A stretch of 64,000 nt of DNA from a virus: the IMG/VR virus record IMGVR_UViG_3300034143_000010, one strand, 5' to 3'. Position numbers and translations under genes: made by a program. Numbering within the stretch: the first letter of the stretch is position 1; every line of letters starts with the position of its first letter. The notes beneath the pieces are model-generated. The model was not told where the DNA came from, searched no databases, and saw only the letters and a list, made by a program, of their open reading frames with translations. Shown here piece by piece: positions 5,350-39,912 of this stretch.

Positions 5350-5380
5350 GCGTCCCCGTTCACCTCTCCAGCCGCAAATA

Positions 5381-5722
5381 AGGCTAAATCAAATCACTGT
5401 TTAGTTTTGGGAGGGTGTTACGCCCCGCTTCTCCCTTGAAACCTTACGCAACCTCGGCACAGAGTTTTTTCAGGGTGTCCGCCTTGACGCCCGCAAAAGC
5501 CTACAGAATTCGAGCCTTTAATTATTCGGAGGGTGTCCGCGCTCCCTCTCACACAGCCTATAGAAAATCCCTCTTTAATTTTTAGGGGGTGTGAGTACCT
5601 TGACGCACTCCGCCGAAAAGAGCTTAGATAAAATGGATAGTTAACTTTTCAGGGGGGTGTTATGGCCTTGCCCCCACAGGCAAAGGGTAGGGCTTTTAAT
5701 GGATTAGTTTGGGGAGGGTGAA
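5381..5722 (-). promoter_or_regulatory. Tandem array 1 of six tripartite promoter-like units (about 60-bp period)
   Basis: Plus-strand GGGTG(T/A) at 5413, 5473, 5531, 5587, 5655, 5716. On the minus strand each unit reads ACACCC-N8-10-YTAA-N14-TANNNT (unit 2 degenerate at YTAA, unit 6 TCACCC). Confidence 0.75.
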
Positions 5723-5977: not shown

Positions 5978-6005
5978 AACAGGGGCAAAGCTTTCGCCCT
6001 ACCCC
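5971..6005 (-). terminator. Rho-independent terminator
   Basis: Minus strand agggcgaaagctttgcccct hairpin followed by gttttatttt. Inverted copy at 36918-36952. Confidence 0.75.
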
Positions 6006-6015
6006 ATTAAACCAA

Positions 6016-6034
6016 ATTCGTCAAATTTACGATT
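6016..6034. repeat. AWTCGT-CAAATTT-ACGAWT palindromic repeat, copy 1
   Basis: attcgt caaattt acgatt read directly. Confidence 0.9.
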
Positions 6035-6073
6035 ATCAACTCTCAGTGTTTAGGGTGTGATTGGTCTATCAGT

Positions 6074-7957
6074 TTACCCAGTTGCCTCTATAGGTTCTAT
6101 CGGTAATGTAGCCTCTAAAGTTACAAGTTCGTGGGTTTCTTCTTGGATGGTCATCATGAATAGTTTTTGCCCGTCAGGCGATAAGTACATATAGCCATGC
6201 CCAACTTTACCAAAAGAAGATGGATAACCTTTCTTTAAAAGTTCAAAATGAGCGCCTGAATTTCTCAATTCGCCATTTACCTTGTATTCAGTATAACCTT
6301 GTGTCCAAGTGCCTTCTATGTATTGACCGTTTTGACTAATTGTATAAATTGTTCCGCTGTCTGACTTCCATGTACCACCGAAAACTGGATTGATCTTCTT
6401 TTCAGTAAAAAAAGTATCAGCAAATAATAATACAAATCGTTGTTGCTGTCTGGCAGTAACAAGGGTTTTATCTAAAATGGTAGACTCTTTCTCTTGTAAT
6501 TCAATAATGCTTGCAAGTGCGCTGCCTACGGCCTTATTTATATCGTTTTGCTTCTGCGCTTCCATGAGAAGGTCTTTTGCCTCCTCAAAAAGACCGATAG
6601 AAATGTATTGGTACGCGAGATTGCTCGCAGCTAGAGTGTTCTTTAATTCAACAGCTTTCTTGTAGGCTCTCATTGACAAGCCTAGCATATCAAAAGAGTG
6701 ATACTCTACTCCAAGATTATTCCAAGCTGTTGAATGATCGGGATTAAATTGATGAAGTGTCTTGTAATGTAAAACCGACAAAGGATGTCCTTTGTCTCCT
6801 TCACATGAATAGGAATATCCCGCATTAAAGTGAAGCGTTGCGTCGTTAGGTCTATTCTCGAGCGCTTTCTCTAAGCAAACCGCTCGCAATCTGTAGCTAT
6901 TATCTAATTCATAAAGTGAAGCAAGACCGGAGTAAAGTTCAGATACAGCACTCGGGTCTGTAGTTTCATTAATGGAATCTATAAGAGATTGAAACGCTTC
7001 CTTTTTGCTGCCGGTCTTGTGGAGACACTTGGCCGCGTGTACTTTCGCATATGCACTCTTATAGGGTGTTGGCGCTTTTTGAGCCGCCAGCTCATAGGCT
7101 AATATGGCCTTGTTAAAGTTTTCAGAGAGTTCATAGCTTTGACCTATCCAAAAATTGGCACTTGCCACACCTTCATCCGTAGCTCCCAAGTCTTGTAGTT
7201 TACCTAGAGCTTCTGGGTCTCCAAGCGCAAAGCAAAAATGTAAATAGATAGCATGCTTTCTTATAGACTCTTCTTTATCAGTTTCTACTTCCTCAATCTT
7301 TTTATATATTTCATGTACTTTTGATAAGTCATCTGCAACCCAAGCATCTATCATTTCATTAAATAAAGTATCAGCCGAATCAGTGGTTAGACCTACATTT
7401 TCCTCCCCCTGCTCTATGTTAGCGCCTCCTGTAAGAGATGACGTAGTTTCTATTTTTTCAGTTTGCGCTGCCTCAGATCGAGAGGTGACGCTTTTTACTT
7501 GGTGCTCAAACTCGGGCCAGAACTTTTCAAATAGTGTGTCAATTTGGGCCTCGCTAGGAGCAGTATCACCAGCAGCGATTCTAATAGCAGTTAGAAGTTT
7601 TCTAGTTTCATTTTTTTCTGCTTTAGCGCCATTGAATTGTTCGAGTGGGCCTTTTATATCCTCAAAATCTACATCCAAGAGATAAGGTACAACATGCGAT
7701 TTATCGATCAGCTTAGATAACGCGCCAGCTTCAAAAAATATCCATGGAGCAGCTAAATTATCTGGTGTAAGACATAGTATTCCAAAGTTGCACTGGTTAA
7801 GCACATTTGTCAGTTCGGTTCCCCACCTAGCCCCTTTGTAAATATTGTGGGCCGACATCCATGGCTCTACGGCTTGAATAATAAGAGGAAGAAATCCGCT
7901 CAAAGCTTCAGCGATAATCTTACTTTTATCACCTGACCAACTTATGAATACTTTCAT
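6074..7957 (-). CDS. TIR domain plus TPR-repeat protein (putative anti-phage sensor/effector)
   Basis: N-terminal KVFISWSG...ILCLTPDN..PWIFFEAGALSK (TIR catalytic Glu) and TPR-like helices (AWNNLGVEY...YKKAVEL). AT-rich gene. Confidence 0.8.
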   Translation of the reverse strand: MKVFISWSGDKSKIIAEALSGFLPLIIQAVEPWMSAHNIYKGARWGTELTNVLNQCNFGILCLTPDNLAAPWIFFEAGALSKLIDKSHVVPYLLDVDFEDIKGPLEQFNGAKAEKNETRKLLTAIRIAAGDTAPSEAQIDTLFEKFWPEFEHQVKSVTSRSEAAQTEKIETTSSLTGGANIEQGEENVGLTTDSADTLFNEMIDAWVADDLSKVHEIYKKIEEVETDKEESIRKHAIYLHFCFALGDPEALGKLQDLGATDEGVASANFWIGQSYELSENFNKAILAYELAAQKAPTPYKSAYAKVHAAKCLHKTGSKKEAFQSLIDSINETTDPSAVSELYSGLASLYELDNSYRLRAVCLEKALENRPNDATLHFNAGYSYSCEGDKGHPLSVLHYKTLHQFNPDHSTAWNNLGVEYHSFDMLGLSMRAYKKAVELKNTLAASNLAYQYISIGLFEEAKDLLMEAQKQNDINKAVGSALASIIELQEKESTILDKTLVTARQQQRFVLLFADTFFTEKKINPVFGGTWKSDSGTIYTISQNGQYIEGTWTQGYTEYKVNGELRNSGAHFELLKKGYPSSFGKVGHGYMYLSPDGQKLFMMTIQEETHELVTLEATLPIEPIEATG

Positions 7958-8088: not shown

Positions 8089-8140
8089 TTACTTCTCTTC
8101 AGCTTTCAAATCACGAATCAATCTATCAAATGCTTTCTGA
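8089..8140 (-). pseudogene. 3' remnant of a pentapeptide-TIR gene
   Basis: Encodes KAFDRLIRDLKAEEK*, nearly identical to the end of 33481-34554 (KAFDRLLRDLKAEEK*). Confidence 0.8.
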
Positions 8141-8160
8141 TATGAACCCTGCATCCGTTC

Positions 8161-10237: not shown

Positions 10238-10738
10238 ATGGATACTTACAGAGAATTACCATTAGTCAATTCAGAGCAGATGGCGAGAGTTGATCTTGAA
10301 GATTACCTTCGCCTCAATCGCTATCGCTGGCATCTCACGCGGGTAGGTAAATACTCATACGTCTATCGGCTCAGGTGTATGGCCGGACGCTCCACGCAAA
10401 TAATGCTTCATCATGCCATCTTAGACTTACCGCAAGGCGTGCGCGTGAGGCGCATCAATAAAGAGACTCTTGATTATCGCCGCGCTAATCTGAGAATCAC
10501 TGACGGCTCTATCTATCGCAATCCACATTCAAAGCGTTGCCCCTATGCTGTGTGCATCACGATTGACGGGAAGCACTTCTACGTGGGGAGTTGGCCGACA
10601 AAGGAATGGGCGAAGAGGGCGAGAGATGCGGCGGCGGAAGCGGCAAAGACGTTGCGCGGTCGGGGGCTCTCGGAGAGGGCTATTCAGCGCGAGCTTGATC
10701 TGGCGGCGGGCCGGGATGTGAGGAAGAAAGCGGCATAG
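10238..10738 (+). CDS. Degenerate HNH-AP2 domain DNA-binding protein
   Basis: LHHAILDLPQGVRVRRINKETLDYRRANLR (HNH_3 pattern with DH replaced by RR) and ITIDGKHFYVGSWPTKEWAKRARDAAA (AP2-like). Confidence 0.7.
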   Translation: MDTYRELPLVNSEQMARVDLEDYLRLNRYRWHLTRVGKYSYVYRLRCMAGRSTQIMLHHAILDLPQGVRVRRINKETLDYRRANLRITDGSIYRNPHSKRCPYAVCITIDGKHFYVGSWPTKEWAKRARDAAAEAAKTLRGRGLSERAIQRELDLAAGRDVRKKAA

Positions 10739-21809: not shown

Positions 21810-21895
21810 TCGAGCACCGCTCCAAATGTTTTTGAGTCGCGCGAGCACCGCCCGCGGGACAAGATTCGCCGCCCCTGAGGCGGCCAGAGGATGTC

Positions 21896-21938
21896 AGACT
21901 AAGGGATATGGGAATTTAATTATTCGGAGGGTGTCCGC
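21896..21938 (-). promoter_or_regulatory. Single copy of tripartite late-promoter-like motif
   Basis: Minus strand GCGGACACCC-tccgaataa-TTAA-N14-TAGTCT, upstream of scaffold/capsid. Confidence 0.75.
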
Positions 21939-22667: not shown

Positions 22668-23054
22668 TCACCGTCGGCTACCGCGAATCAAAAGACCGAT
22701 GACGAGCCCGGCTGCCGCCGAGATCAATATCGCCTGGCCCGGATTCTGGCGCGCGTAGTCTTTGGCCTGATTGGCGACCTCTTTGTAGTCCGTGTTCTGC
22801 AAGTCCTTGAACTTGTCAACCACCGGGGTCATCTTGTCAGACACGTAGTCCTTGGCTGTCGAAGCAGCATCGGCAACCTTCTTGCCGTATTCCTGTGCTG
22901 ACACGGCAAGCCCTGTTGCTGTCCCTGTCCCTATCGCTCCTGGATCATTGTATTGTCTCTCCCACTCCTCTCGCTCCCTTTTAAGTCTATCTATTTCATC
23001 AATCTCGCCAGGCTTTTCTTTCTCTTGTGCCTTGATGGTTTCCTGCTCAGACAT
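22668..23054 (-). CDS. DUF883 / ElaB-YqjD-like tail-anchored membrane protein
   Basis: AKDYARQNPGQAILISAAAGLVIGLLIRGSRR C-terminus. Confidence 0.8.
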   Translation of the reverse strand: MSEQETIKAQEKEKPGEIDEIDRLKREREEWERQYNDPGAIGTGTATGLAVSAQEYGKKVADAASTAKDYVSDKMTPVVDKFKDLQNTDYKEVANQAKDYARQNPGQAILISAAAGLVIGLLIRGSRR

Positions 23055-23778
23055 CGCTATCCTCCTTAGTAGTGAGGTCGCCCTCGGTCTTATTCATGCT
23101 CGGTGCACTCGGGCTGACGATTGTTGTGGCGGTCCATTTTGTGCCTCTCGCAAATATTATAAATTCAACCTTGTAGGCGGTTTTATCATTCGTTAATAGC
23201 TCAACTAGCTGCTGATCTCGAATTGTTTCTCCTGGTTCTATCCACGCGTGCCTTTCCAATACGTTAAAGGGCGCTAAATATTTCCAGGGGACACTCCGTA
23301 CTCTGCGTTGTTGAGCCTCTATCTCTGGCACCTGAAGCCTAAACCTTTCATGGAAAATATTTAGGCTAACGCCCCTTTGTGTGAGTTCAACTTTTGAAGA
23401 GCCGACATTTTTAAGACTAACAGAAATTCTCAGGTGGCTAACGTTACCGATTTTGATGATCTCCCCAGAGACACTTGTTTCTAAACGGGATATAAACACC
23501 CGCTCCTTAATAAATTTAAAATATGTCCAAATTCCACCCAAGATTAAGGCTGTAACTGTAGCGAGATGCTCAAAGGTGGAAGTCAAACTTTCCAAATCGC
23601 TAATTGTCATGCTCCAACTAATTTTTACTGAAGGTGACAGCGTCATCGCAATGAAGCTATCGCATACTAATACAACGTACATGACAAGGGCAGGTTTGAA
23701 ATCTTTCAATAGCTCTCTAATGCTTTGAAAGTCTATTGGCATGGAAGAAATATCCTTAAAGAGTGGTGAGATCAACAA
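23047..23778 (-). CDS. Hypothetical membrane protein
   Basis: 243-aa AT-rich ORF with hydrophobic N-terminal segments. Start uncertain. Confidence 0.6.
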   Translation of the reverse strand: MLISPLFKDISSMPIDFQSIRELLKDFKPALVMYVVLVCDSFIAMTLSPSVKISWSMTISDLESLTSTFEHLATVTALILGGIWTYFKFIKERVFISRLETSVSGEIIKIGNVSHLRISVSLKNVGSSKVELTQRGVSLNIFHERFRLQVPEIEAQQRRVRSVPWKYLAPFNVLERHAWIEPGETIRDQQLVELLTNDKTAYKVEFIIFARGTKWTATTIVSPSAPSMNKTEGDLTTKEDSDV

Positions 23779-24080
23779 ACAAAGGTAAGACCACTGTCAG
23801 TAAGGAGAAACGCAGCAGAGAATATTACTGTGGGATATTGCTGTCAATATTTAGCTGCAGGTTATTAGGTGAGGTCTATTTACCGTGTTTGCCTTTACTA
23901 GGAAATAACAGTATATGATAAGCAAACATTAATCTCGCCTAAAGAGAAAATTTATCATACACTCCAACTCTTGCCAGTTGACCGCCTTGAGAGCGAGCTT
24001 TATGACAGCAAACTTCCACCACTTTACCTATTGTTGTCGAAAGAAGTTAACCACATCAAATGTTTATCGGGAGGGGAAAC

Positions 24081-24296
24081 ATGGGGTTCTCCACGTACAC
24101 TATAGAAGTGCAGAACAAAGCAATAGTTTTGCATCCCGACTCTACTCCTGATCAGCCAATCCAAATTGAAATTACCGACCGAAGTTCAGCGTACTCGGTT
24201 GTTAAGTGGGCTGGCGGGAAACAGTGGCTAGCTGTAGCAGCTAAACAACTAGCCCCGCCTAACTGGAATGGAAGATATTATGAAACATTCATATAA
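24081..24296 (+). CDS. Small hypothetical protein
   Basis: RBS ggagggg before ATG 24081, MGFSTYTIEV... Confidence 0.55.
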   Translation: MGFSTYTIEVQNKAIVLHPDSTPDQPIQIEITDRSSAYSVVKWAGGKQWLAVAAKQLAPPNWNGRYYETFI

Positions 24297-24335
24297 GTTA
24301 TTGTGTATCCCCCACAATCAGACAATTGCTGAATC

Positions 24336-25832
24336 TCATTGACCAGCACCCGCGCCAGCCCCGCCGCCGCCATCAAAATCCTTCAGCAAGGAAGCGCCCG
24401 GATTCTTCGCCTGATCCTTCAATCTCTGCTCTTCCACTTTTGGATCGAACGTATCCGGCAAAGCATCAGAGTTCTGCATTATCTCCCACATGGTTAGAAG
24501 CGAGAGCTGGCCCTGCGCGGCCATACTGCTGTAGGTGGCGATCTGCGCCTGTGTGAGCCGCATGCTCTTCAGGTGAGAGCCCAAGGTGACGGAGCCGCCC
24601 TTATCTTCGCCAAGGTCCAAGTACTGCGCGTGAAAGCCCATGCACTGCTCAAGCATATCGCTGAAGGAGCGCGCCATCGTTTCCAGTTCCGACGACTCCT
24701 GAGTGAAATCTATGACCGTCTCAGTGGCCGTGGCTTCAGCCTGCCGCTGCCCGGCGATCACTGAGAGGCCGAGGGTGGCCATCTCGCCGCGGAGGTCTTG
24801 CAGGTCGAGGCGCGACTCTTCAAGCGAGTTACCAGTCGGCTCCATATAGTAAGCATCACCATCTGCCGGAACTCTGATTCCAAGACCGGAGCCCACTTCT
24901 ATCTTTTTGATTCCCTCATCCACGCCTTTGAAAATAGGAATTGGAAAGTTGCATTTATGAAGGTTGCGGTCTCGATCAGACTTCTTTTGAAAGTAGCTGA
25001 TATTCAAGAGCGCCAGGTCTAGCAGGGGCGGCTGGCTCTGAAGGAAGCCTTTCTTCTTACCGTAGGCGACGCTGACGGGGATGCGCGAGAGCTTAGGGAT
25101 TACGCCCCCGTCTATGACCGGGAAAGCGTCCTCTCCGTTTAGTCCCTTTTGCTTCTCTTTCAACTCCCATCTGACTTCCATCTTCACTTCGGAGCTGATC
25201 AGATCTGTATAAGGAACAAGGGTGAATGTGCGATAGCGCATGACTGTCTTCTCGCCATATTCGCCATCCTCCACGCACGTCTCCTCCTCGAAGGTAATCT
25301 GGCCAATCTCGGTCTGCCCGTTAATGGTCGCCTTGCGGAAATTAATAGCTTGGTCGGCGGTGTATTTCACCCAGTAGGGGCGCAGGCCCGCTCTCAGCTC
25401 GTCTTCAAGCGTAGCGCCGGGACCGAGCGCCTTCTGCATGTCCACGAGCACGAGCACATGCCCGTCGAAGAGGTCTTCAAATGCCTCTTTAGCAAACACG
25501 TCGAGATGCGTTCCGGCGAGGTCAATATTCTCCGCATGATCTTTGATTTGTTGCGGCACGTCTTCGTTGAGCACCGGATTCTTCTTAAAGACCATGCCAA
25601 CGAGGCCCTGCACGGTGCGCACGTACGCGTTGAAGAGCGTAGCCGTGCCCAGCCGATCTTTATAATCGTCAGCATGCTCTGCCGGAAACTGCGGTAGATA
25701 GGCTTTCCCCAGGTCGCGCAGGTGAAGCGCAGTCTTTGACACGTCCCTGACTATCTTCCAAGCGCGCGCCATCGCCAGATAAGTTTTATTCCGATAGCTT
25801 GGTTTATTACTTTCGTTATTAGTCATGATCAA
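24336..25832 (-). CDS. Portal protein (DUF4055-like)
   Basis: YLPQFPAEHADDYKDRL..ATLFNAY.RTV.GLVGMVF..., PPLLDLALLNI.YFQK.SD. Follows the terminase. Confidence 0.88.
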   Translation of the reverse strand: MIMTNNESNKPSYRNKTYLAMARAWKIVRDVSKTALHLRDLGKAYLPQFPAEHADDYKDRLGTATLFNAYVRTVQGLVGMVFKKNPVLNEDVPQQIKDHAENIDLAGTHLDVFAKEAFEDLFDGHVLVLVDMQKALGPGATLEDELRAGLRPYWVKYTADQAINFRKATINGQTEIGQITFEEETCVEDGEYGEKTVMRYRTFTLVPYTDLISSEVKMEVRWELKEKQKGLNGEDAFPVIDGGVIPKLSRIPVSVAYGKKKGFLQSQPPLLDLALLNISYFQKKSDRDRNLHKCNFPIPIFKGVDEGIKKIEVGSGLGIRVPADGDAYYMEPTGNSLEESRLDLQDLRGEMATLGLSVIAGQRQAEATATETVIDFTQESSELETMARSFSDMLEQCMGFHAQYLDLGEDKGGSVTLGSHLKSMRLTQAQIATYSSMAAQGQLSLLTMWEIMQNSDALPDTFDPKVEEQRLKDQAKNPGASLLKDFDGGGGAGAGAGQ

Positions 25833-27595
25833 ATCCTGAACTCAACTGATCCCACTTCTTTGGTTTTGAATAGGAAGTCGGGAGCGACTGACAACACGAA
25901 GCCGTCACCGTCGTCGGGCGAGCGACCCAATCGTTTGGGTTTGCGAAACTCTATCTTCGACTCCAGCCTCTTAACGTCCACGCCCTTGAGGTTGACCCAC
26001 TCGTAAAGGCGCTCACACAGATCGGCTTCGAGCGTCTCCGGGGGCTTTTCGATGCGTATCCCCTTCAGCGTCTCCGCCGCTTCGGCCATCGCTTGAGTGA
26101 TCAGATCGTGATAGGACTTCTCGTCGGTGGCACTGGCATTGAAATGCACTTCGTAGACACGGAAGTCTATGAACGCGGCGCGCAGCTCCATATCGGTTTT
26201 GAGCTTGTCCACGACGCCGCCACCGAAGCCGCCGCCGCCATCGACGCGGATGTGCAGGCTTTTAACGCCCTTCCCGGCGAGCTTGAGAGCCTCTGCCTTG
26301 ATGACGCGCGCATAATCGTTCGTGTCCTGTTTCCAGAACTGCGCGGCGCGCCAGGCGCGGCCCATGTAGCGAATAAAGAGTGTTCCGTAGTCACGCCCGT
26401 AGCGAGATACGTCCACGCCCATGCGCGCGCGCGTCGGGTCTTCTGCTGGAGCCTCCCGCTTGCAGGCAGCCTCGTAGCGCCCGACGGTAATCAGGCTCTT
26501 GTCGGAGATATTTGCCGGAGCAATGCCGAGCACGCGGAACATGAATTCCGGGTCGGGCTTAAAGATCGTGCCCTCCGGATGCGTGCCGTCTTTAGTGACG
26601 ACCGGGAAAGGTAGCTCGAAGGTCAAGTCATCTTCAGAGTGCTCAGTGACAACCTCGCAGTGCTTCTCCACCATTTCCTCGACGTACTGCCGCTTGACCG
26701 CGCCCGGCACGACCTCACGGCCTGCGACGACGTTCGGGTGATGAATGCAGGAGATGCGAAAGCTCTTGACGTTGGAATTGTTTTTCGCCTTATGAAACTT
26801 CGACGAGCGGGTCTTAGGGTTCGCCAGCATGAGCACGATGGAGATTCCGCCCGAGGTCATCGAATCAACCGCATTCCAGACGAAGTCGGCTACGCCCTCG
26901 GCCTCATCCAGCACATAGAGGTTATATTTGCCGTGCTGGCCCTGCGCGCGCTCTGTTCCTGTGCCGCTGGCGTTGTTTGTCGCCTTGCCCTTGATGAAGT
27001 GCTCGTCGCCTACCCTGATCTCCAAATCCATGACCCGGCCCGGAAGGCCCTTGTCGCGCCTGTCAGTCTTTATCTCCTTGAATAGCAGGTCATGAATCTG
27101 CTCGCCTGAAGGCGCAAAGCAGTACCCGACGCATGGCGTGAAGTGATCGAAGAAGTGGTTGACCAAGCCGGAGGTCAGCTTGGTCTTACCGACGGTGTGA
27201 CCGGCTTCGACACGAATACGGTTTTTAATGACTTGTCCGGGCTTCCAATACTGTAGATCGTCAACTGTAATAGGCCCCGGCTTCAGCCACGGGCAATACG
27301 GCGCATCTTCTTCGGAAAGGAAGCCAGCTTCGTATGCCTTGCGCTCGTGCTGCTGTCGTAGCGCGAGCACGTAAGCGTCTATAACCTGCTGCTGACCGGG
27401 ATGATCTTCGTCTCCGCTCCATGGCTCCCAGCCCAGATGATTCTTGATATAGGTGGCCGGTTCGTAGTGCGTAGCATTGAAGCGGCTCGTCTGAGGAGCT
27501 GGGCCATAGACCTTTAAGGCAAGCTGCGCGGCCTCCGCCTGTTGGTCAGGCGGCAACTGCATTATGCGTGCATAGACTTCCTCACGACTGAGCAT
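25829..27595 (-). CDS. terL: Terminase large subunit
   Basis: Walker A-like AGHTVGKT, Walker B VLDEAEG, nuclease GVDVSRYGRD and SPDDGDG. Start refined to MLSREEVY. Confidence 0.9.
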   Translation of the reverse strand: MLSREEVYARIMQLPPDQQAEAAQLALKVYGPAPQTSRFNATHYEPATYIKNHLGWEPWSGDEDHPGQQQVIDAYVLALRQQHERKAYEAGFLSEEDAPYCPWLKPGPITVDDLQYWKPGQVIKNRIRVEAGHTVGKTKLTSGLVNHFFDHFTPCVGYCFAPSGEQIHDLLFKEIKTDRRDKGLPGRVMDLEIRVGDEHFIKGKATNNASGTGTERAQGQHGKYNLYVLDEAEGVADFVWNAVDSMTSGGISIVLMLANPKTRSSKFHKAKNNSNVKSFRISCIHHPNVVAGREVVPGAVKRQYVEEMVEKHCEVVTEHSEDDLTFELPFPVVTKDGTHPEGTIFKPDPEFMFRVLGIAPANISDKSLITVGRYEAACKREAPAEDPTRARMGVDVSRYGRDYGTLFIRYMGRAWRAAQFWKQDTNDYARVIKAEALKLAGKGVKSLHIRVDGGGGFGGGVVDKLKTDMELRAAFIDFRVYEVHFNASATDEKSYHDLITQAMAEAAETLKGIRIEKPPETLEADLCERLYEWVNLKGVDVKRLESKIEFRKPKRLGRSPDDGDGFVLSVAPDFLFKTKEVGSVEFRI

Positions 27596-28100
27596 TGTCA
27601 GCAGGCAGCTCGTCAGGAGAAGCGCCAAGAAGTTCTGCCAGAGCCTCACGCGCATTAACCTTCACGTCTACTTTCTGGCGGCGGTCGCCCATCTCTTTAG
27701 CGATGTCATCAAGCAGGCCACGGAATTGCGTAACCTCCGCTGAATTGAAAGTATCGACATCAACGATTTCCTGAAAATCGCCACTGCCGACGGCCTTCCT
27801 ATCGGGCAGCCACAACCGGCCATTTTCGAGTAGGTCTTTCTCCAGTTCTTCGGCGAGCTTATTCAGCGACTCAACGCGCCGCTCCTTGCGGGCAAAACCT
27901 ACTTTCAGCGCGCTCGTCTCCGCTTCATCCTTAATCTGCGAGACCTTCACTTTGCGCGTTTTGCGATAGTGGTCTACCTGCTGGCGTGAGACTGAGTAAG
28001 GCTCGTCGAACTTACTTGCCTGCTCGTTAATCTCGTTGCTTTCGAGGCCCTCTGAGATCAATGCGAGCAGGTGCTTTTTTTGGTCGCTGTTCAGCTTCAT
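27582..28100 (-). CDS. Putative terminase small subunit
   Basis: Helical ORF overlapping the terL start. VSRQQVDHY, LDDIAKEMG. Confidence 0.65.
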   Translation of the reverse strand: MKLNSDQKKHLLALISEGLESNEINEQASKFDEPYSVSRQQVDHYRKTRKVKVSQIKDEAETSALKVGFARKERRVESLNKLAEELEKDLLENGRLWLPDRKAVGSGDFQEIVDVDTFNSAEVTQFRGLLDDIAKEMGDRRQKVDVKVNAREALAELLGASPDELPADNAQS

Positions 28101-28308
28101 CGTTTTCTTGCCCAGGCTCGGCATCAACGAACCTGACTGTTACTTCAAGGAGACGCGCGCGCCCGTGATGCGCGAGCAGAAGCGCCGCGTCGGCTTCGGA
28201 GGCTGGCAGGTCGAGCTTGATGCGCGCACCGTCGCCTCGCCCACCGGAGAAAGTCACAGCGCTTTGAATCGGCGGCAGTGAGGCGAGGAATTTGATCTCA
28301 TCTACCAA
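28027..28308 (-). CDS. Hypothetical protein
   Basis: DEIKFLASLPPIQSAVTFSG.GDGARIKLDLP. TTG start inferred. Confidence 0.5.
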   Translation of the reverse strand: MVDEIKFLASLPPIQSAVTFSGGRGDGARIKLDLPASEADAALLLAHHGRARLLEVTVRFVDAEPGQENDEAEQRPKKAPARIDLRGPRKQRD

Positions 28309-28495
28309 GCTGTCCCGCCTTGAATTGGAGGAATCTGTAAGGCTCTGTGTTCCTGTATTGCAGCGCGGCGCACCTGTCGCACCGCCGCACTTCCCTGTCC
28401 CTGCGAACGGTGCCGCCGTGCCAGACGCACCAGGCATGGAGAGGAAGGAGGTTGCAGAGTAAGAATTTAAGAATTTTGTTCATCGCACTTGTCAC
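28298..28495 (-). CDS. Small Cys-containing hypothetical protein
   Basis: LCNLLPLHAW...RCDRC. Coupled to neighbouring ORFs. Confidence 0.45.
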   Translation of the reverse strand: MTSAMNKILKFLLCNLLPLHAWCVWHGGTVRRDREVRRCDRCAALQYRNTEPYRFLQFKAGQLGR

Positions 28496-28505
28496 CCGTT
28501 ACTTG

Positions 28506-28901
28506 TCAGGCCTGCACAGTAAGTTGGCGGGCCATCTGCCGCGCACGCTTCGCCTCGCGCCGGTTCACCTTCGGCTCCTTGCGCACGGCGGTGATGCCGC
28601 GTATGAAATTGCCATCTTCTGGGTTCACACGGTCTGATCGGTGCGCATAGACGCCGTAGCGACCGCACACAGCTGATGGCTTATCAGCCTCTTCCTGCCG
28701 CTTCTGAAGCTCGTAGCGGCGTACATTACACTCAGCTTGAGAGCGCGCCGTATCCGGGTGCTTACAAGCCCTGTGATAGCCCGCCTCAACCGTTCCTGCT
28801 TCGATCAGGTCTGCGAGCAGCCTGATCTTGACCTCCTGCGGGTCGGTCTGCCGCTCCATCTCAGCGGCGACCTTCAGTTCTATTTCTTCGAGATCGATCA
28901 T
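28506..28901 (-). CDS. Hypothetical protein
   Basis: RBS ggag before MIDLEEIELK. Confidence 0.55.
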   Translation of the reverse strand: MIDLEEIELKVAAEMERQTDPQEVKIRLLADLIEAGTVEAGYHRACKHPDTARSQAECNVRRYELQKRQEEADKPSAVCGRYGVYAHRSDRVNPEDGNFIRGITAVRKEPKVNRREAKRARQMARQLTVQA

Positions 28902-29007
28902 TTTGTCTCCTGTTTGACTGCTCCGACGAAGCCTTGATAACAGAGGATTTGAATCACCAGAGTTATGGCCCGGTTTATGATCTTCACTGCGATACCTCAT
29001 GCTTCAA

Positions 29008-29026
29008 AATCGTCAAATTTACGAAT
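29008..29026. repeat. Palindromic repeat, copy 3
   Basis: aatcgt caaattt acgaat. Confidence 0.9.
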
Positions 29027-29027
29027 A

Positions 29028-29216
29028 TCAACTCTGTAGATTCTCGGCCCACTCGACCTGTCCCCGCACCACGAAGAACTGCGCGCCGCAGTCGTGCGGA
29101 CAAATGATCGAAGGCTCAGCCGACCATGTGCCGCCTTCGTGCTGTGTGATCTCGTGTTCGTCGAGAGTCATCCAGCCGCCGCAGCGCGGGCACTTGATTT
29201 TCTTCCTGATACTCAA
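29028..29216 (-). CDS. Small zinc-binding protein (DUF6527-like)
   Basis: CPRCG...TWSAEPSIICPHDCGAQFFVVRGQVEW. Confidence 0.55.
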   Translation of the reverse strand: MSIRKKIKCPRCGGWMTLDEHEITQHEGGTWSAEPSIICPHDCGAQFFVVRGQVEWAENLQS

Positions 29217-29341
29217 GACTCTTGCTCCCTCTTCGCCCGCTCCTTGTAGTAGTTGTCAAGCAACTTCTGAATGACGATGCTCAGAATGCCGATAAAAGCG
29301 ACGATCACGCTTGCAACGCCGCTATCTAATTTCCTGCGCAT
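29213..29341 (-). CDS. 42-aa single-TM protein
   Basis: MRRKLDSGVASVIVAFIGILSIVIQKLLDNYYKERAKREQES*, overlapping both neighbours. Confidence 0.5.
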   Translation of the reverse strand: MRRKLDSGVASVIVAFIGILSIVIQKLLDNYYKERAKREQES

Positions 29342-29937
29342 GGAAGCTTCTCCTCTGGAATTCTGAAGAATGCCTGAACGACCCTTGGGTCGAACTGGCT
29401 GCCGCTACAACGTGTCAGCGCCGCGGCTGCCGCCTGATAGCCTTTCCCTGCGCGATAACACCGGTTATTCGTGATGGCGTCATAAGCATCGGCCACGGCC
29501 ACGATGCGCGCCCCGAGCGTGATCCCAGCGCCTGCAAGGCCGCACGGGTAGCCATGTCCGTCAAATCGCTCGTGATGCTGGCCGACGATATCAACGATAT
29601 GGACGGGCATCTCCAGTTCGGCGAGGGCCGCCGTGCCCTCGATAACATGCGCTCGCATGTGCATGCGCTCGATAGCCGTTAATTCGCCTTCCTTCTTGAG
29701 CACAGAGTCTTTCGTGCAAATCTTGCCGATGTCGTGAAGCTGTGCGCCGTAATAGAGCGCGAGCAACTCGGCGCGCTCGAGCTTCAGCTCTCTGCCGATA
29801 AGCACGGAAACACGCGCGACCCGTAAAACATGGTCATGCGTTCCCCTATCCTTTAACTTGAGCGCAACTAACAATGCACTGCTAGCGATTCTTAGTGCAT
29901 CGCCCGTAAGTGCAGAAGATTTTAATGTTATCGGCAT
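29326..29937 (-). CDS. Stand-alone HD-GYP phosphodiesterase
   Basis: HVLRV, LHDIGKI, HVIEG, QHHERFDGHGYPCGL, ARIVAVADAYDAIT, GSQFDP. Confidence 0.92.
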   Translation of the reverse strand: MPITLKSSALTGDALRIASSALLVALKLKDRGTHDHVLRVARVSVLIGRELKLERAELLALYYGAQLHDIGKICTKDSVLKKEGELTAIERMHMRAHVIEGTAALAELEMPVHIVDIVGQHHERFDGHGYPCGLAGAGITLGARIVAVADAYDAITNNRCYRAGKGYQAAAAALTRCSGSQFDPRVVQAFFRIPEEKLPCAGN

Positions 29938-30263
29938 TTAATTATTCGGACGGTGTTATGCCCTGAAACCCTTCCACCGATGTAGCTTAGGTAAATCCGG
30001 TCTTACGTTTTGGGAGGGTGTCCGCGCCCCTCACGAACAGGTTATCTAAGACCTCTCTTTAGTTTATTTAGGGTGTCCGCCCGCCCGCCATTGAGAGCCT
30101 AATAAAGCCCGACGTTTAATTACTCAGAGGGTGTCCGCCTTGACGCACTCCGCCGAAAAGAGCTTAGATAAAATGGATATTTAACTTTTCAGGGGGGTGT
30201 TACGGCTTTTGCCCCTACAGGCAAAGGGTAGGACTTTTAATTGATTAGTTTGGGGAGGGTGAA
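29919..30263 (-). promoter_or_regulatory. Tandem array 2 of six tripartite promoter-like units
   Basis: (G/C)GGTG(T/A) at 29951, 30016, 30071, 30129, 30195, 30257. Each has YTAA (GTAA in unit 2) and a TANNNT hexamer at 13-14 nt on the minus strand. Confidence 0.75.
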
Positions 30264-30266
30264 ACG

Positions 30267-30299
30267 GTGAATAGGAAGAGAATAATTGCTATCGGTTTA
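30267..30299 (+). pseudogene. 5' remnant of a DUF4177-like gene
   Basis: GTG-NRKRIIAIGL resembles MFISRKIIAIGL of 5723 at the same position relative to the array, then similarity stops. Confidence 0.6.
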
Positions 30300-30346
30300 C
30301 CTTCGCCTCTAGTTTGCCGTCACTTTGATAGTTTCTCTTAGCTTAT

Positions 30347-30500
30347 CAAAGTGATCGCGCGTGCCCGTGACTACTCCGCATTACGCGGCTTCTCAAGCAA
30401 CGCCCTCCCTAATGGGACACGTTTGCGCTTGAAGGTTAAGCCCTAACCTCAATATCTCTAATGCGGCAGAGTGGTCACGACTAACACTCAAGCCGCATGT
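30347..30500 (-). ncRNA. Predicted TnpB omega-RNA (scaffold ending at TCAC 30367, guide beyond)
   Basis: Minus strand gagaagccgcgtaatgcggagtagTCAC is a typical IS200/605 right end just after tnpB. The 5' extent is a guess. Confidence 0.55.
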
Positions 30501-31514
30501 TTGGCATTCATGCCAGCGTTGCGAGAGTGTTTTAGGTACGCCAGCGCCGCATGTGCATCTCTGTGATGTTCCGCGAGGGTCAACTTTAACCAGCTTGCGT
30601 CCAGTCTCTTCCACTTTGTACGCAACCTTATTTAAAAAGCTTGACCATCCAGCATCATTAACAGACTTGGCTAGCATTCCGCTCGCCAAGCCTTTAATGT
30701 TCAAATCTTCTATGGCGATCAATCCGTAATTGTTGACGAGAGCGCGAGAGGCTTTATGGTGAAAGTCTGCGCGTTGATTCTTAATGTGGGCATGAATGCG
30801 CTGTAGAAGTTGCACGGCTTTCCGGCGACGATGAGAGCCTTTCTTCCGTCGTGCTACTTTGCGCTGTGCCCTGCGAAGCTTGGCTTGTGCTGTCTTGAAA
30901 TAGCGCGGGTTCTCTATTTCTGTACCATCAGAGAGGGTAGCGAAAGTGGTAAGGCCAACATCTATTCCAATAGACTCAGAGCAAGGCGGCAATGGCTTCT
31001 CTTCACATTCAAGACTAAAACACACGTACCAACGTCCAGCCTCGCGCTTAACAGAAACTGTCTTGATCTTGCCTTCGATAACGCGGTGAAGTTTTACTTT
31101 AACGAGCCCAATCCCTTGCAGTCTTAACTTGCCATTATCAAGTAAGCGGCAACCATTACCATAAGCAGGATAGGTAAAGCTGTCGAAGCGGCGTGCAGAT
31201 TTAAATCGCGGAAATCCCGCTTTCTCTTTACGCTTCACGCGAGCAAAGAAAGCCTTGAACGTCTTATCAAGACGGCGCAATACATCATGCGCTACGTTGC
31301 AATTGAAGATACCAGTGTCGCCCTCCGCTCGAATCTCTTTAAGCTGGCGTGTTTGATCGTATAGTTGGATGGACTTGCGCTCTAACTTCCAAGCGTCGCG
31401 GCGCTCCTGAAGCCCAGCGTTATAAAGTCTGCACGCCTCCGCTAGTTGACCATTCAGCAAGTCAACCTGTGCGCGTGTCGGATACAACCTATACTTGAAA
31501 GTCTTACGAATCAT
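30393..31514 (-). CDS. tnpB: RNA-guided endonuclease TnpB (IS605/IS1341-type)
   Basis: KTFKYRLYPT N-terminus, RuvC IGIDVGL / IAIEDLN / SRDHSAA, zinc finger CTCG...CQTCG. No tnpA in the window. Confidence 0.95.
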   Translation of the reverse strand: MIRKTFKYRLYPTRAQVDLLNGQLAEACRLYNAGLQERRDAWKLERKSIQLYDQTRQLKEIRAEGDTGIFNCNVAHDVLRRLDKTFKAFFARVKRKEKAGFPRFKSARRFDSFTYPAYGNGCRLLDNGKLRLQGIGLVKVKLHRVIEGKIKTVSVKREAGRWYVCFSLECEEKPLPPCSESIGIDVGLTTFATLSDGTEIENPRYFKTAQAKLRRAQRKVARRKKGSHRRRKAVQLLQRIHAHIKNQRADFHHKASRALVNNYGLIAIEDLNIKGLASGMLAKSVNDAGWSSFLNKVAYKVEETGRKLVKVDPRGTSQRCTCGAGVPKTLSQRWHECQTCGLSVSRDHSAALEILRLGLNLQAQTCPIREGVA

Positions 31515-31521
31515 CTGCTAT

Positions 31522-32022
31522 TTACGCAGCCTTCTTTCTCACATCCCGGCCCGCCGCCAGATCAAGCTCGCGCTGAATAGCCCTCTCCGAGAGCCCCCGA
31601 CCGCGCAACGTCTTTGCCGCTTCCGCCGCCGCATCTCTCGCCCTCTTCGCCCATTCCTTTGTCGGCCAACTCCCCACGTAGAAGTGCTTCCCGTCAATCG
31701 TGATGCACACGGCAAACGGGCAACGCTTTGAATGAGGATTGCGATAGATAGAGCCGTCAGTGATTTTCAGATTAGCGCGGCGATAATCAAGAGTCTCTTT
31801 ATTGATGCGCCGCACGCGCACGCCTCGCGGCAAATCCAACACGGCATGATGAAGCATTATTTGTGTGGAGCGTCCGGCCATACACCTGAGCCGATAGACG
31901 TATGAGTATTTACCTACGCGCATGAGATGCCAGCGATAGCGATTGAGGCGCAGGTAATCTTCAAGATCAACTATCGCCGTCTGCTCTGAATTGACTAATG
32001 GTAATTCTCTATAAGGTTTCAT
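31522..32022 (-). CDS. Degenerate HNH-AP2 domain protein (paralog of 10238-10738)
   Basis: Near-identical sequence, same loss of HNH catalytic residues. Confidence 0.7.
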   Translation of the reverse strand: MKPYRELPLVNSEQTAIVDLEDYLRLNRYRWHLMRVGKYSYVYRLRCMAGRSTQIMLHHAVLDLPRGVRVRRINKETLDYRRANLKITDGSIYRNPHSKRCPFAVCITIDGKHFYVGSWPTKEWAKRARDAAAEAAKTLRGRGLSERAIQRELDLAAGRDVRKKAA

Positions 32023-33225: not shown

Positions 33226-33447
33226 ATGGTCAAAGGAATGTTTACTACTGAAGAGGCAGCAGCAGAATTAGGCGTGACCTCTGCGCGCGTGCGGCAGATG
33301 ATTATTGATGGCACTATTGAAGCTGAGAAGTTTGGGCGCGACCTTTTGATAACAGCAGAGGCGCTTCAAGTGGCGAGGCAGAGAAAAACGAAGCCCGGCC
33401 CGACTCCAACAGCTAAGAAATCAGCAAAGAAAAGCAGTAAGAAGTAA
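33226..33447 (+). CDS. Small excisionase-like (HTH_17) DNA-binding protein
   Basis: FTTEEAAAELGVTSARVRQMIIDGTIEAEKFGRDLLI. TTGCGT-17-TAGAAT ends 6 nt before the ATG (probably leaderless). Confidence 0.85.
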   Translation: MVKGMFTTEEAAAELGVTSARVRQMIIDGTIEAEKFGRDLLITAEALQVARQRKTKPGPTPTAKKSAKKSSKK

Positions 33448-33480
33448 CAAGCCTCTTACCCCTCACCGGAGCTAATCATT

Positions 33481-34554
33481 ATGGCTGACCCTGAACATTT
33501 AAAGCTTCTCCTAGAGTATGATGTATTCACTTGGAATAATTGGAGAGAGAGTAACCCTGAAGTAACTCCTGATCTTAGCGAAGCTATTCTTGATAAAGTA
33601 AATCTAATTAGGTTCAACCTCAGTTGGGCGAATTTGAATGACGCGAGACTTTCTGATGTAGACCTTTCAAAAGCTATTCTTGATCGAGCAGACCTAAGAG
33701 ACGCATATCTCTTTGATACAAACCTTGAAGGCGCTGATCTAATACAGTCAAACCTTGAAGGCGCAACTCTATTCAGAGTAACGTTGCGCGAGGCTAGACT
33801 TGTAGAGACGATCTTACGATTTACAACACTCTTCAGCACAAACCTAGACTCAGCAGACCTAACGAGAGCGGACTTTGCTGATGCTAGAATTGCTGATGTC
33901 AATTTTATCCGCAATGACCTTAGCGTAGTTAATAATCTACATTCAGTACGTCACTCTGGGCCTTCAAATATAAGCATTGATACGCTGTATATATCCTCTG
34001 GGGGAATTCCGGAAGTCTTTCTGCATGGCTGTGGCGTACCCGAGTCATTTATTTTTCAAGTCCCTGCACTTGTCGCATCAATTGAACCAATCCAGTTCCA
34101 CTCTTGCTTTATTAGCTACAGTACAAAAGATGAGGGATTTGCTAGACGGCTTTATTCACGAATGCGAGATGAGAAATTGCGCGTATGGTTTGCCCCTGAA
34201 GATATAAAGGGTGGGCAGAAATTGCATGAACAGATAGAGCGAGCTATTCAACTGCATGACAGACTTTTATTAGTGTTATCTGAGAACAGTATGCAAAGCG
34301 AATGGGTAATAACTGAGATTCAGGGGGCACGGAAAACAGAGATTGAAGAGAACAGACGTAAACTGTTCCCGATTACTATTGTAAATTTCGATAAAGTCAA
34401 AACTTGGAAATGCTTCGATGCTGACAGCGGCAAAGATTTAGCTAAAGAGGTGCGCGAGTATTACATACCTGATTTCTCAAACTGGAAAGATCAGGATTCA
34501 TTCGAGAAAGCATTCGATAGATTGCTTCGTGATTTGAAAGCTGAAGAGAAGTAA
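33481..34554 (+). CDS. Pentapeptide-repeat plus TIR domain protein
   Basis: A(D/N)LxxA pentapeptide repeats, SCFISYSTKD...VRVWFAPED, SEWVITEI (catalytic Glu). Confidence 0.9.
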   Translation: MADPEHLKLLLEYDVFTWNNWRESNPEVTPDLSEAILDKVNLIRFNLSWANLNDARLSDVDLSKAILDRADLRDAYLFDTNLEGADLIQSNLEGATLFRVTLREARLVETILRFTTLFSTNLDSADLTRADFADARIADVNFIRNDLSVVNNLHSVRHSGPSNISIDTLYISSGGIPEVFLHGCGVPESFIFQVPALVASIEPIQFHSCFISYSTKDEGFARRLYSRMRDEKLRVWFAPEDIKGGQKLHEQIERAIQLHDRLLLVLSENSMQSEWVITEIQGARKTEIEENRRKLFPITIVNFDKVKTWKCFDADSGKDLAKEVREYYIPDFSNWKDQDSFEKAFDRLLRDLKAEEK

Positions 34555-34625
34555 AATGGTAAGCAGGAGTAGACCGCTAAAGGCTAAAGACGATTCAAAG
34601 GTGAGTAAGAAGGGTAGAAAGGCCA

Positions 34626-36762: not shown

Positions 36763-36887
36763 GTAGTGAGTTGTTAAAAGCATTATCTTGTTTATACACA
36801 ACAGGTGGCTGCCTAACAACTCACTCACTCAAAATACATAGACTCCACCTCTCCCCTATCATCCCATTCAATATCCATGAAGTAGAT

Positions 36888-36906
36888 AATCGTAAATTTG
36901 ACGAAT
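36888..36906. repeat. Palindromic repeat, copy 4 (inverted)
   Basis: aatcgt aaatttg acgaat. Confidence 0.9.
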
Positions 36907-36917
36907 TTGGATATTAC

Positions 36918-36952
36918 GGGGTAGGGCGAAAGCTTTGCCCCTGTTTTGTTTT
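36918..36952 (+). terminator. Rho-independent terminator
   Basis: agggcgaaagctttgcccct plus gttttgtttt. Reverse complement of 5971-6005. Confidence 0.75.
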
Positions 36953-37419: not shown

Positions 37420-37944
37420 TCAATCCGTGTAAGGAAAGACTTGCAGCAAATGCAGCCCGAAAGGCAGCTTGAAGGATTCGGGCAGTACCCACAGATGCCT
37501 CAAGTTAGCTTCATTTATCAACCTTGACTCGCTCGGAAAGACTTCGATAGCTGTTCGCTCATAGCCCCGCAACCCGTTCTTTATCCTCTGCAAATCATCC
37601 CAGCTTTGAATGGGCCGTTTATCTTCTCGCCAGATCATCATTAGATCAACGTCGCCCCATTCGCAGGGAATGCGCCCGATGAATACTATAAAGAATCTAT
37701 TCCTGAAACATTCATAAACACAATTCAGCATCGGGTCAACGCCTTCATGTGCGGGAACGGGAAAGCGTTGCCATTCTCCCCACGCGGGAAGAGAGCCGCC
37801 TATTTTCCTCTGCCTGAAATCATTCATCAGAGGTTTGACCCCTTCATTTTCGCGTCCGTCAGATATGCTCATGCCACAACAAGCGGCCAGCCGTCGCCTT
37901 TGCCTCTTGATTGTTTTATTCTTTTGTCTGGCTACTTTGCTCAT
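37420..37944 (-). CDS. Conserved phage protein (DUF7694-like)
   Basis: SWDDLQRIKN...ERTAIEVFPSESRLINEANLRHLWVLP. Confidence 0.65.
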   Translation of the reverse strand: MSKVARQKNKTIKRQRRRLAACCGMSISDGRENEGVKPLMNDFRQRKIGGSLPAWGEWQRFPVPAHEGVDPMLNCVYECFRNRFFIVFIGRIPCEWGDVDLMMIWREDKRPIQSWDDLQRIKNGLRGYERTAIEVFPSESRLINEANLRHLWVLPESFKLPFGLHLLQVFPYTD

Positions 37945-38009
37945 CGCGCGTGCCCCTGTCTTTCAGCTTGAGAGCGACGAGCAGGGCAGCCGTTGCCGCT
38001 CTCAGCTCG

Positions 38010-38291
38010 TTACCGCTCACGTCGCCCCTTTTCAGAAAGCGCGTCCCTGATCTTCTCGACGTTCTTATCAATCCGCTCGACCGTCTTCCAGCGCTCGTCT
38101 AAAAGCTCGCGCGTGACCATCTTCTCCTGCGCCTTCTCGACCGCGTCAATCCTGTCGGTCGTGCGCGCCTGCGTAACCCAGACAGAGAGGGTTGCGCCGC
38201 CGATGCTGACGGCGAGCGCAATAACGATTTGAATTATGGAGAGTTTTTCGAGCAGGGACTTTCTCGTCTCGCTCTCTACGACGGGTGACAT
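38010..38291 (-). CDS. Single-TM coiled-coil protein of the lysis cassette
   Basis: IIQIVIALAVSIGGATLSVWV followed by a coiled coil. Adjacent to the holin-like gene. Confidence 0.55.
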   Translation of the reverse strand: MSPVVESETRKSLLEKLSIIQIVIALAVSIGGATLSVWVTQARTTDRIDAVEKAQEKMVTRELLDERWKTVERIDKNVEKIRDALSEKGRRER

Positions 38292-38708: not shown

Positions 38709-38838
38709 ATAGTCTCCGATCGAAAGATTTGGCAGGCGCTTCGTAAATGAGGCACTCAGGGCGACCGGAGCACAGTCAGATTATTCGCCTCGCTATGCGG
38801 TGCGCTCCATTTCTGTAGAAGCGCCTGCCTGAGGCCAG

Positions 38839-38881
38839 AGACTAGACCAGGGAGGGATTTAATTATTCGGAGGGTGTCCGC
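38839..38881 (-). promoter_or_regulatory. Single copy of tripartite late-promoter-like motif
   Basis: GCGGACACCC-tccgaataa-TTAA-N14-TAGTCT upstream of the holin-like genes. Confidence 0.75.
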
Positions 38882-38885
38882 TTTG

Positions 38886-39332
38886 CTACGGGACGATATC
38901 GCCGAAGGGGCGGCCTGTGAGATAGATATCCATGCGCTTCGGGCCAGGCCGGAGACTTTGGCGCGGACGCCATTCCGCTGCCTTGGCTTCGATCAACTCA
39001 TTAACAATCTTAACGACCGTCGCCTTCACAATTGAAGTCTCCTCGCAGATATCCGTGATGGAATTGCATCCCTTGTACTTGATGGCTCGCAAGATATCTT
39101 TGACACTCTCATCCTTACTTTGCCCGCCGTGCTTGCGCATCTTATGTACGAGCCGGTAAAGATCTCTCAGAAGTTCTTTATTCTCCGGCTGATGCCAGTA
39201 CTCTGATCCATCTACCTGCCAGAGCAGTTCCTGAGCGCGCTCATTTGCTTCGGCCCGGCGATCATCCATCTGCTTTCGCCTGCGCACCGTTCTCGAGCTG
39301 GGGGAAGGAATAAGTGTTTCAGGTAATGCCAT
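38886..39332 (-). CDS. Winged-helix DNA-binding protein (candidate late activator)
   Basis: ILRAIKYKGCNSITDICEETSIVKATVVKIVNELIEAKAAEW. Located in the usual late-regulator slot. Confidence 0.6.
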   Translation of the reverse strand: MALPETLIPSPSSRTVRRRKQMDDRRAEANERAQELLWQVDGSEYWHQPENKELLRDLYRLVHKMRKHGGQSKDESVKDILRAIKYKGCNSITDICEETSIVKATVVKIVNELIEAKAAEWRPRQSLRPGPKRMDIYLTGRPFGDIVP

Positions 39333-39870: not shown

Positions 39871-39912
39871 CTTATACAGAGATGCGGGATTTAATTGTCT
39901 TGAGGGTGTCCG
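39871..39912 (-). promoter_or_regulatory. Single copy of tripartite motif (TATAAG -10)
   Basis: CCGGACACCC-tcaagacaa-TTAA-N14-TATAAG upstream of VRR-NUC and the wHTH gene. Confidence 0.65.

Follow-up and report, generated by a model that had tools for sequence, protein, structure and literature searches.

Between the tnpB gene and the late genes of a siphovirus-like prophage lies a short stretch of degenerate tandem units, and it is this locus, here called array 2, whose function is in question. The window (the whole 64,000-nt stretch of DNA analysed, IMG/VR record IMGVR_UViG_3300034143_000010) contains a second such stretch, array 1. The late genes are encoded on the minus strand and comprise terminase (27655 to 25829), portal, scaffold (21848 to 21027), major capsid, tail and tape measure (15765 to 12310) genes, with DUF2460 and Gp84 as tail-tip genes. 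The units might be a CRISPR-like array, an RNA connected with TnpB, binding sites for a phage protein, or signals that drive the late genes. We consider each possibility where the relevant evidence is given.

The units of array 2 and their spacing

Array 2 spans window positions 29930-30263 on the minus strand and is made up of units of 55-66 bp. Read along that strand, a unit consists of (GCGG)ACACCCTCC, N5-7, TTAAAN, N11-12 and TANNNT, with the third box mostly TA(G/A)NCT. The ACACCC-box anchors fall at 30262, 30200, 30134, 30076, 30021 and 29956 (spacings of 62, 66, 58, 55 and 65), and those of array 1, also on the minus strand, at 5721, 5660, 5592, 5536, 5478 and 5418. TANNNT was found 32-34 nt from the anchor in 14 of the 15 units of the window, the remaining one having TATAAG in its place; shuffled sequences (n=2000) averaged 2.9, with 6 as the highest value. 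Motif searches gave 8 matches where 0.46-1.6 were expected. The three-box units at 55-66 bp described in an earlier, sequence-only reading of this DNA are therefore real, since the spacing of their boxes lies beyond all 2000 shuffles, and they face the downstream late gene (HD, minus strand) as that reading had proposed.

A motif model built solely from the sequences of 17 sites (R1) scored 13 copies in the window, all of them intergenic, on the minus strand and just 5' of late genes: five in array 1, four in array 2, three single copies and a partial copy at 29930-56 (Table 1). Array 2 had been presented as an array of six units. Its six anchors are present, but they do not mark six equal units: array 2 is confirmed as a real, non-random cluster of late-operon promoter-like motif copies, of which four are complete, one is truncated and one is marginal by R1.

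Unit 2 is the last complete unit, with a box spacing of 32; transcription from it would start near 29977 and give a leader of ~40 nt to the HD start codon. The apparent -10 of the proximal, truncated unit 1 (TAAAAT) falls within HD codons L-K-S, and this unit cannot serve as a promoter. The HD start codon itself has no Shine-Dalgarno sequence and lies inside the TTAAAT box of the truncated unit (…GAATAATTAAATG; window 29935-29960, minus strand); in relatives HD is translationally coupled (ATGA) to the gene before it. At the other end of array 2 the middle box of 'unit 6' is off-register. 'Unit 6' is marginal in both arrays; read in reverse complement, its first box is the Shine-Dalgarno sequence of the divergent, plus-strand DUF4177 gene (GGGGAGGGTGA; GGGGAGGGTGAAATG).

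Tandem Repeats Finder returned 0 rows for the arrays because only short degenerate boxes are common to the units, which are 50-70% identical. Both arrays recur with 100% identity in three independent metagenome assemblies and in the Logan contigs, and are therefore not an assembly artefact. Exact-protein look-ups matched 100%-identical contigs of the same strain only.

Table 1. Positions of the array units, the single motif copies and the neighbouring genes and segments in the window. R1, motif model; E, E-value.
Feature	Position	Strand	Description
Array 2 unit 1, truncated	29938..29960	-	ACACCGTCCGAATAATTAA fused to HD start codon; partial R1, E 0.03
Array 2 unit 2	29961..30025	-	GCGGACACCCTCC / GTAAGA / TAAGCT; R1 29984-30025, E 1e-6
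Array 2 unit 3	30026..30080	-	GCGGACACCCTAA / CTAAAG / TAACCT; R1 30038-30080, E 2e-5
Array 2 unit 4	30081..30138	-	GCGGACACCCTCT / TTAAAC / TAGGCT; R1 30094-30138, E 1e-6
Array 2 unit 5	30139..30204	-	ACACCCCCC / TTAAAT / TAAGCT; R1 30159-30201, E 7e-9
Array 2 marginal 'unit 6'	30205..30266	-	TCACCCTCC + TACCCT, spacing 32; no R1 score
Recombination or gene-conversion patch	30139..30263		118/125 identical (94.4%) to 5598-5722
DUF4177 gene stub	30264..30306	+	~14 codons, GTG start; homology to 5723-5765 stops at 30306
11-bp-stem hairpin	30354-30320	-	Overlaps HD-derived 16-mer; putative right-end region 30320..30370
Putative tnpB right end TCAC	30370-30367	-	Followed by HD-derived 16-mer GGGCACGCGCGATCAC (30366-30351)
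tnpB (OrfB_IS605 / Cas12f1-like TNB)	30393..31514	-	Pfam; 5' of array 2, same strand
HD_5 / HD-GYP-like gene	29326..29937	-	Pfam HD_5 2e-30; homologous to L033 2382-2972
Leftover resident-HD 5' fragment	37943..38020	-	MSGNELRAATAALLVALKLKDRGTRD; cut at 37943 by ~8.1-kb block
Winged-helix protein, candidate late activator	38886..39332	-	148 aa, pI 9.45; weak HTH_24/MarR_2
Array 1	5350..5722	-	Scored units 5619-60, 5554-92, 5496-5540, 5440-82, 5380-5419; marginal unit 6
Single motif	21895..21938	-	5' of scaffold and major-capsid genes; homologous sites in L018, L019, L033
Single motif	38837..38881	-	5 nt past winged-helix stop, 5' of holin gene; same arrangement in L033, L116, L181
Single motif, -10 TATAAG	39874..39912	-	5' of VRR-NUC and winged-helix genes; homologue L033 280-320

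Late-promoter reading and candidate activator

We lean towards reading array 2 as a stack of activator-dependent late promoters that lack a -35 and sit at an island junction. TANNNT would act in each unit as a -10 of the sigma70 type. The -35 is absent, and its place would be taken by the GCGGACACCCTCC box at approximately -49 to -37 and the TTAAA box at approximately -30 to -25, a layout that would fit a phage-encoded activator. In line with this, a promoter scan of the arrays found no canonical sigma70 promoter. The units may have multiplied and then diverged through unequal crossover; the boxes were kept while identity between them fell to 50-70%, which implies selection on every unit. We infer promoter activity, the identity of the activator and the firing of each individual unit from the sequence.

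The same conservation bears on the alternative that the arrays are functionally neutral debris, that is, promoter ends left behind by repeated recombination between island and backbone, of which the proximal unit alone matters. This would explain why arrays are found at island junctions only and are absent from relatives, why a truncated unit sits at the HD start codon, and why the arrays show an unequal-crossover junction and a conversion patch (see below). However, the sequence between the boxes has diverged to near the floor, yet 9-10 units of the two arrays have kept all three boxes and the distances between them. Since neutral debris would have lost the boxes as well, we regard this alternative as distinctly improbable.

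Five loci in the window carry the motif, upstream of the scaffold, holin, VRR-NUC, HD (array 2) and LamG (array 1) genes. Array 1 lies 5' of the gene for an 853-aa Laminin_G_3 protein (5349 to 2788; Pfam), and transcripts starting from its proximal unit would have a ~25-nt leader that includes the Shine-Dalgarno sequence GGAGAGG. Within the 5.5-Mb genome no further copies were found outside the phage sites, and 3 of 150 further family genomes had motif matches, all three of them related prophages. The motif is restricted to the phage clade of the window. Related Acidobacteriota phages (L033/G061, L018/G063, L019/G062 and L181/G010) have single copies at homologous positions, always along the late genes: at VRR-NUC, past the winged-helix gene before the lysis genes, and at scaffold. 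Their first box is slightly altered (GCCACCCCTCC; GCGGAGCCACCCCTCC) with unchanged spacing, and all 17 sites, from 3 lineages, keep the TA of the third box. The 47-kb, 91% complete L033/G061 has exactly three motif sites; its HD gene is translationally coupled to the preceding gene, its tape-measure gene is directly followed by DUF2460, and it has no array at either position.

The motif pattern showed no excess over control across 60 relatives. Searches of IMG/VR and JGI metagenomes with motif and tandem-box patterns returned no further arrays, the matches being unrelated coding or simple repeats and the known relative L033/L034, and an IMG/VR search with the LamG and winged-helix proteins recovered no close relatives. 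The nearest capsid relatives (89%) are found in Pyrinomonadaceae/Blastocatellia MAGs, and the host is therefore an Acidobacteriota bacterium. To our knowledge, nothing is known of phage regulation in Acidobacteriota (Blastocatellia/Pyrinomonadaceae); should the units be promoters, they would provide the first late-transcription signal, together with a candidate activator, for phages of these bacteria.

The candidate for the phage-encoded activator would be the 148-aa basic winged-helix protein. A copy of the motif lies 3-10 nt past its stop codon, before the lysis genes, in four lineages (window, L033, L116 and L181), and the protein is 39% identical between lineages whose box shifts from GGACACCCTCC to GCCACCCCTCC. 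In L181 1100-1640 (G010, from another genus of the family) the winged-helix stop is followed after 3 nt by GCCAGCACCCCTC...TAAAAC...TAGTCT and then by an amidase-like lysis gene; the order regulator-motif-lysis is therefore conserved beyond the close clade. The atlas neighbours of the protein are MarR/IclR-type winged-helix proteins. Compared with known late-activator families, it gave Pfam matches to HTH_24/MarR_2 that are weak and below cut-off and none in PHROGs, and membership of the Ltr (RinA/ArpU) or Mor/C families was rejected on the basis of both. Further points count against the promoter reading or this choice of activator: the units are spaced at 55-68 bp, less than the footprint of RNA polymerase, and cannot all be occupied at once; the arrays have 4-5 copies where each core operon has one; and the VRR-NUC/winged-helix operon has its own motif 5', so that a different regulator could be responsible.

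The close spacing is also what would be expected if the arrays were not promoters but platforms with multiple binding sites for a DNA-binding protein of the phage, acting as an activator sink that sets the timing of late expression or as a 'stoperator'-like repressor block. We consider this unlikely, as we do the related proposal that such a platform insulates the late genes from island transcription, for example from tnpB, with at most the proximal unit firing. tnpB does point into array 2, and since no intrinsic terminator is predicted between the tnpB right end and the array, read-through is possible. In mycobacteriophage L5, stoperators are 13-bp repressor sites with an asymmetric, phage-specific motif and no attached -10, present genome-wide in short intergenic gaps in one orientation with respect to transcription. 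The window motif is likewise asymmetric, phage-specific, intergenic and in a single orientation. In contrast to stoperators, which are not known to occur in tandem arrays, it forms such arrays and carries a -10. A pure binding site has no need of the -10-like TANNNT that stands at a fixed distance in every unit, including the distal ones; moreover, the 55-68 bp spacing shows no helical phasing, and single copies occur where island-free relatives need promoters.

Promoters stacked in one direction before a single operon are also known from T7, where A1-A2-A3 are strong early promoters for host sigma70, ~100 bp or more apart. The 4-5 window units resemble these in arrangement, but they lack a -35, are 55-68 bp apart and lie at junctions between islands and late genes.

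The motif and the winged-helix protein may be functionally analogous to the Ltr/RinA system and to the C-dependent late promoters of Mu. In the Ltr/RinA system each late activator is a small basic protein, and its recognition repeats follow directly after the gene that encodes it, serving as several activator sites for one promoter (PMC3753634). As in the Ltr superfamily (RinA, LtrA-C and ArpU, acting at terS promoters of Gram-positive phages), the gene for a small basic protein (148 aa, pI 9.45) precedes lysis/packaging genes (PMC3753634), the presumed recognition sequence lies a few nt past its stop, and the late promoter has no good -35. The window regulator differs in having a MarR-like winged-helix fold without Pfam or PHROG membership and an Acidobacteriota host, and the motif differs in being reused at three single sites and two arrays, with its own -10 for each array repeat. 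The late promoters of Mu (C/Mor) and P2 (Ogr) are dispersed, have an activator box 5' of the -10 and a poor or absent -35, and are silent without the phage activator (PMC4461284; bioRxiv 10.1101/2025.05.02.651988). The window resembles them in its several dispersed sites with a common box 5' of a -10 and no -35; however, the Mu and P2 sites are dyad-symmetric and occur once per promoter, whereas the window box is asymmetric and tandemly multiplied, and the regulator is unrelated.

Other readings of the boxes were rejected. Plus-strand, T7-like, sigma54 and sigma28 promoters were discarded by eye for mismatches in spacing or consensus, and single copies of the motif have no plus-strand gene downstream of them. 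Taking the middle box as the -10 and the third as a lambda Q-type pause is less likely, the middle box usually lacking the -7 T. Iterons, a centromere or a pac-cos site do not agree with the irregular 55-68 bp spacing or with five loci that include tail and lysis operons.

Array turnover and the neighbouring tnpB

The sequence-only reading had noted that the distal units of the two arrays are nearly identical and that the proximal ones differ, with pieces of array 1 reappearing at other positions. Both statements stand. Across the patch in Table 1, the unit 6 pair is 90% and the unit 5 pair 94% identical between arrays, and the other pairs are 50-70% identical, as are units within one array. 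The proximal units are diverged and partly reshuffled: an exact 19-mer, AGGGTGTCCGCCTTGACGC, is present in array 1 unit 2 (5472-5490) and array 2 unit 4 (30128-30146), and CCGCGC(T/C)CCCTC in array 1 unit 3 and array 2 unit 2. Array 2 unit 4 combines the head of array 1 unit 2 with the tail of array 1 unit 4, joined via the 19-mer, and is a putative product of unequal crossover with its junction at the repeated CCTTGACGC.

The further proposal, that units are gained or exchanged at one end, is not supported on closer inspection of the patch. It is sharply bounded, and identity is lower on both flanks: 63% on the proximal side (the next unit pair) and 70% on the distal side (30/43 in the DUF4177 stub; Fisher p = 8e-5). 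This drop on both sides points to recent gene conversion or recombination between the paralogous arrays, and a 125-bp conversion patch would have homogenised their units 5-6. These patterns indicate that the arrays would have changed by ordinary tandem-repeat turnover and a recent conversion patch, not by polar acquisition.

Polar, CRISPR-like growth, in which units are taken up at one end, would account for distal units common to both arrays and proximal ones that differ, but not for the fall in similarity distal to the patch too. The repeats are not identical, the variable segments had no further matches when compared with the genome and the window, no cas or integrase-like partner is found at the array, and related phages have single motifs rather than arrays of differing unit number. 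We find this account barely credible. A CRISPR array as such was rejected too: it needs near-identical direct repeats of 23-50 nt, its spacers would have no target here, and the neighbours are HD, the DUF4177 stub and tnpB. The sole feature shared with CRISPR or ToxI-type repeats is a period of ~60 bp; unlike those, the window repeats are non-identical and lack targeted spacers, an RNA structure signal and cas or toxN-type partners.

Array 2 had also been placed about 100 bp beyond the tnpB right end on the same strand, with possible co-transcription with the omega-RNA. The distance is correct: the tnpB stop is at 30393, and the gap from its putative right end to the array edge (30263) is ~104 nt. 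No features favouring co-transcription of array 2 with the omega-RNA were found. The array is outside the IS and is a member of the phage's own family of putative late promoters, and since tnpB is not found near array 1 or any of the three single copies, no functional link with TnpB is indicated. Nor does the array qualify as the omega-RNA itself, because it starts past the putative right end only after a 16-nt HD-derived flank and the hairpin. The CRISPR-like or TnpB-linked reading is attractive but unsupported, and is corrected here.

A broader proposal is that the units act as RNA, whether as tandem small RNAs, antitoxin-like repeats, put-like antitermination elements or anti-Shine-Dalgarno CCUCC decoys, perhaps co-transcribed with omega-RNA. 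Each unit contains ACACCCUCC, which is complementary to a Shine-Dalgarno sequence, a GAGGG/CCCUC hairpin can form in some units, and array 2 comes after the tnpB right end in the same orientation. However, the folding of both arrays on either strand was no better than that of shuffled sequences (z = +1.06, -1.05, +1.03), no Rfam family matched anywhere in the window, the boxes keep a DNA-style spacing to the -10, and neither the single copies nor array 1 lie near tnpB. We therefore judge an RNA role very improbable. Type III toxin-antitoxin (ToxI-like) repeats in particular were rejected: such repeats are near-identical where the units share 50-70% identity, the fold z values are +1.06 / -1.05, and the downstream gene encodes an HD phosphohydrolase.

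Accessory islands upstream of the arrays

Each array forms the downstream edge of its own accessory island within the late operon. Accessory DNA occupies 30.3-37.9 kb before HD; the accessory DNA before DUF2460 comprises 5.7-12.3 kb and, in addition, the LamG gene. The islands contain convergent genes and terminators, and the downstream late genes therefore need new promoters. Without re-initiation, an island would cut off the late genes behind it; as stacked late promoters, the arrays would restart late transcription, array 2 into HD/terminase and array 1 into the LamG/tail-tip genes. HD is the first late gene after array 2, with terminase and portal next, and its N-terminus (MPITLKS) aligns with MTATELKS of L033.

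A sibling phage with an intact HD gene and neither the island nor array 2 came to light in Logan contigs of the source samples. Its joint connects 37943 to 29822 with 10 nt between (depth 82 vs 46 in one run) and restores an in-frame HD (...KDRGTRD-HSV-RVA...). By this comparison, array 2, the DUF4177 stub and the diverged HD 5' end lie inside an insertion of ~8.1 kb relative to the sibling. The leftover HD fragment shares a 13-mer, GGGCACGCGCGAT, with the DNA immediately after the tnpB right end (30366-30354); CAC comes next there, which matches the sibling HD. The block enclosed by the two 13-mers resembles a TnpB-ended insertion flanked on either side by its target sequence.

It is conceivable, and we put it forward tentatively, that multiplication of stacked late promoters is adaptive, enabling a temperate phage to accommodate large defence/accessory islands in its late operons, the arrays serving as restart cassettes. 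An island might bring or select for the stacked promoters, and the cassettes might exchange sequence by gene conversion as portable modules of mosaicism, a suggestion that we hold with equal reserve. If true, this would be a concrete route by which multi-kilobase accessory/defence islands are tolerated amid essential late operons.

Several minor observations concern the islands and their assembly. G000, a fragmented assembly, is without window 22.9-31.5 kb (portal, terminase, HD, array 2 and tnpB; 8.7 kb), and its contigs C30, C11 and C20 end in repeats of 110-230 bp (10581-10690, about 22800 and 31523-31700). Since the gene order of the window matches that of L033, the join across 22900-31550 looks correct. 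A 72-bp module at 5971-6041 recurs inverted at 36881-36952 (92% identical), at the edges of both islands; it consists of a bidirectional terminator and the palindrome TCGTCAAATTTACGA, of which shorter copies are found at 29005, 45722, 21989 and 61578.

On the JGI contig Ga0643823_0000591 (L177), a TIR-pentapeptide island ends in a 55%-identical DUF4177 gene, a context with no array. The contig shares short patches of 72-91% identity with window 5792-5967, 8089-8145, 33438-33509 and 34482-34621. These patches fall in both islands, which therefore draw from a common pool of defence-like cassettes. Beside array 1, a low-GC (40%) segment holds the gene for a TIR-TPR protein (6074-7957, minus strand), which is probably anti-phage defence cargo.
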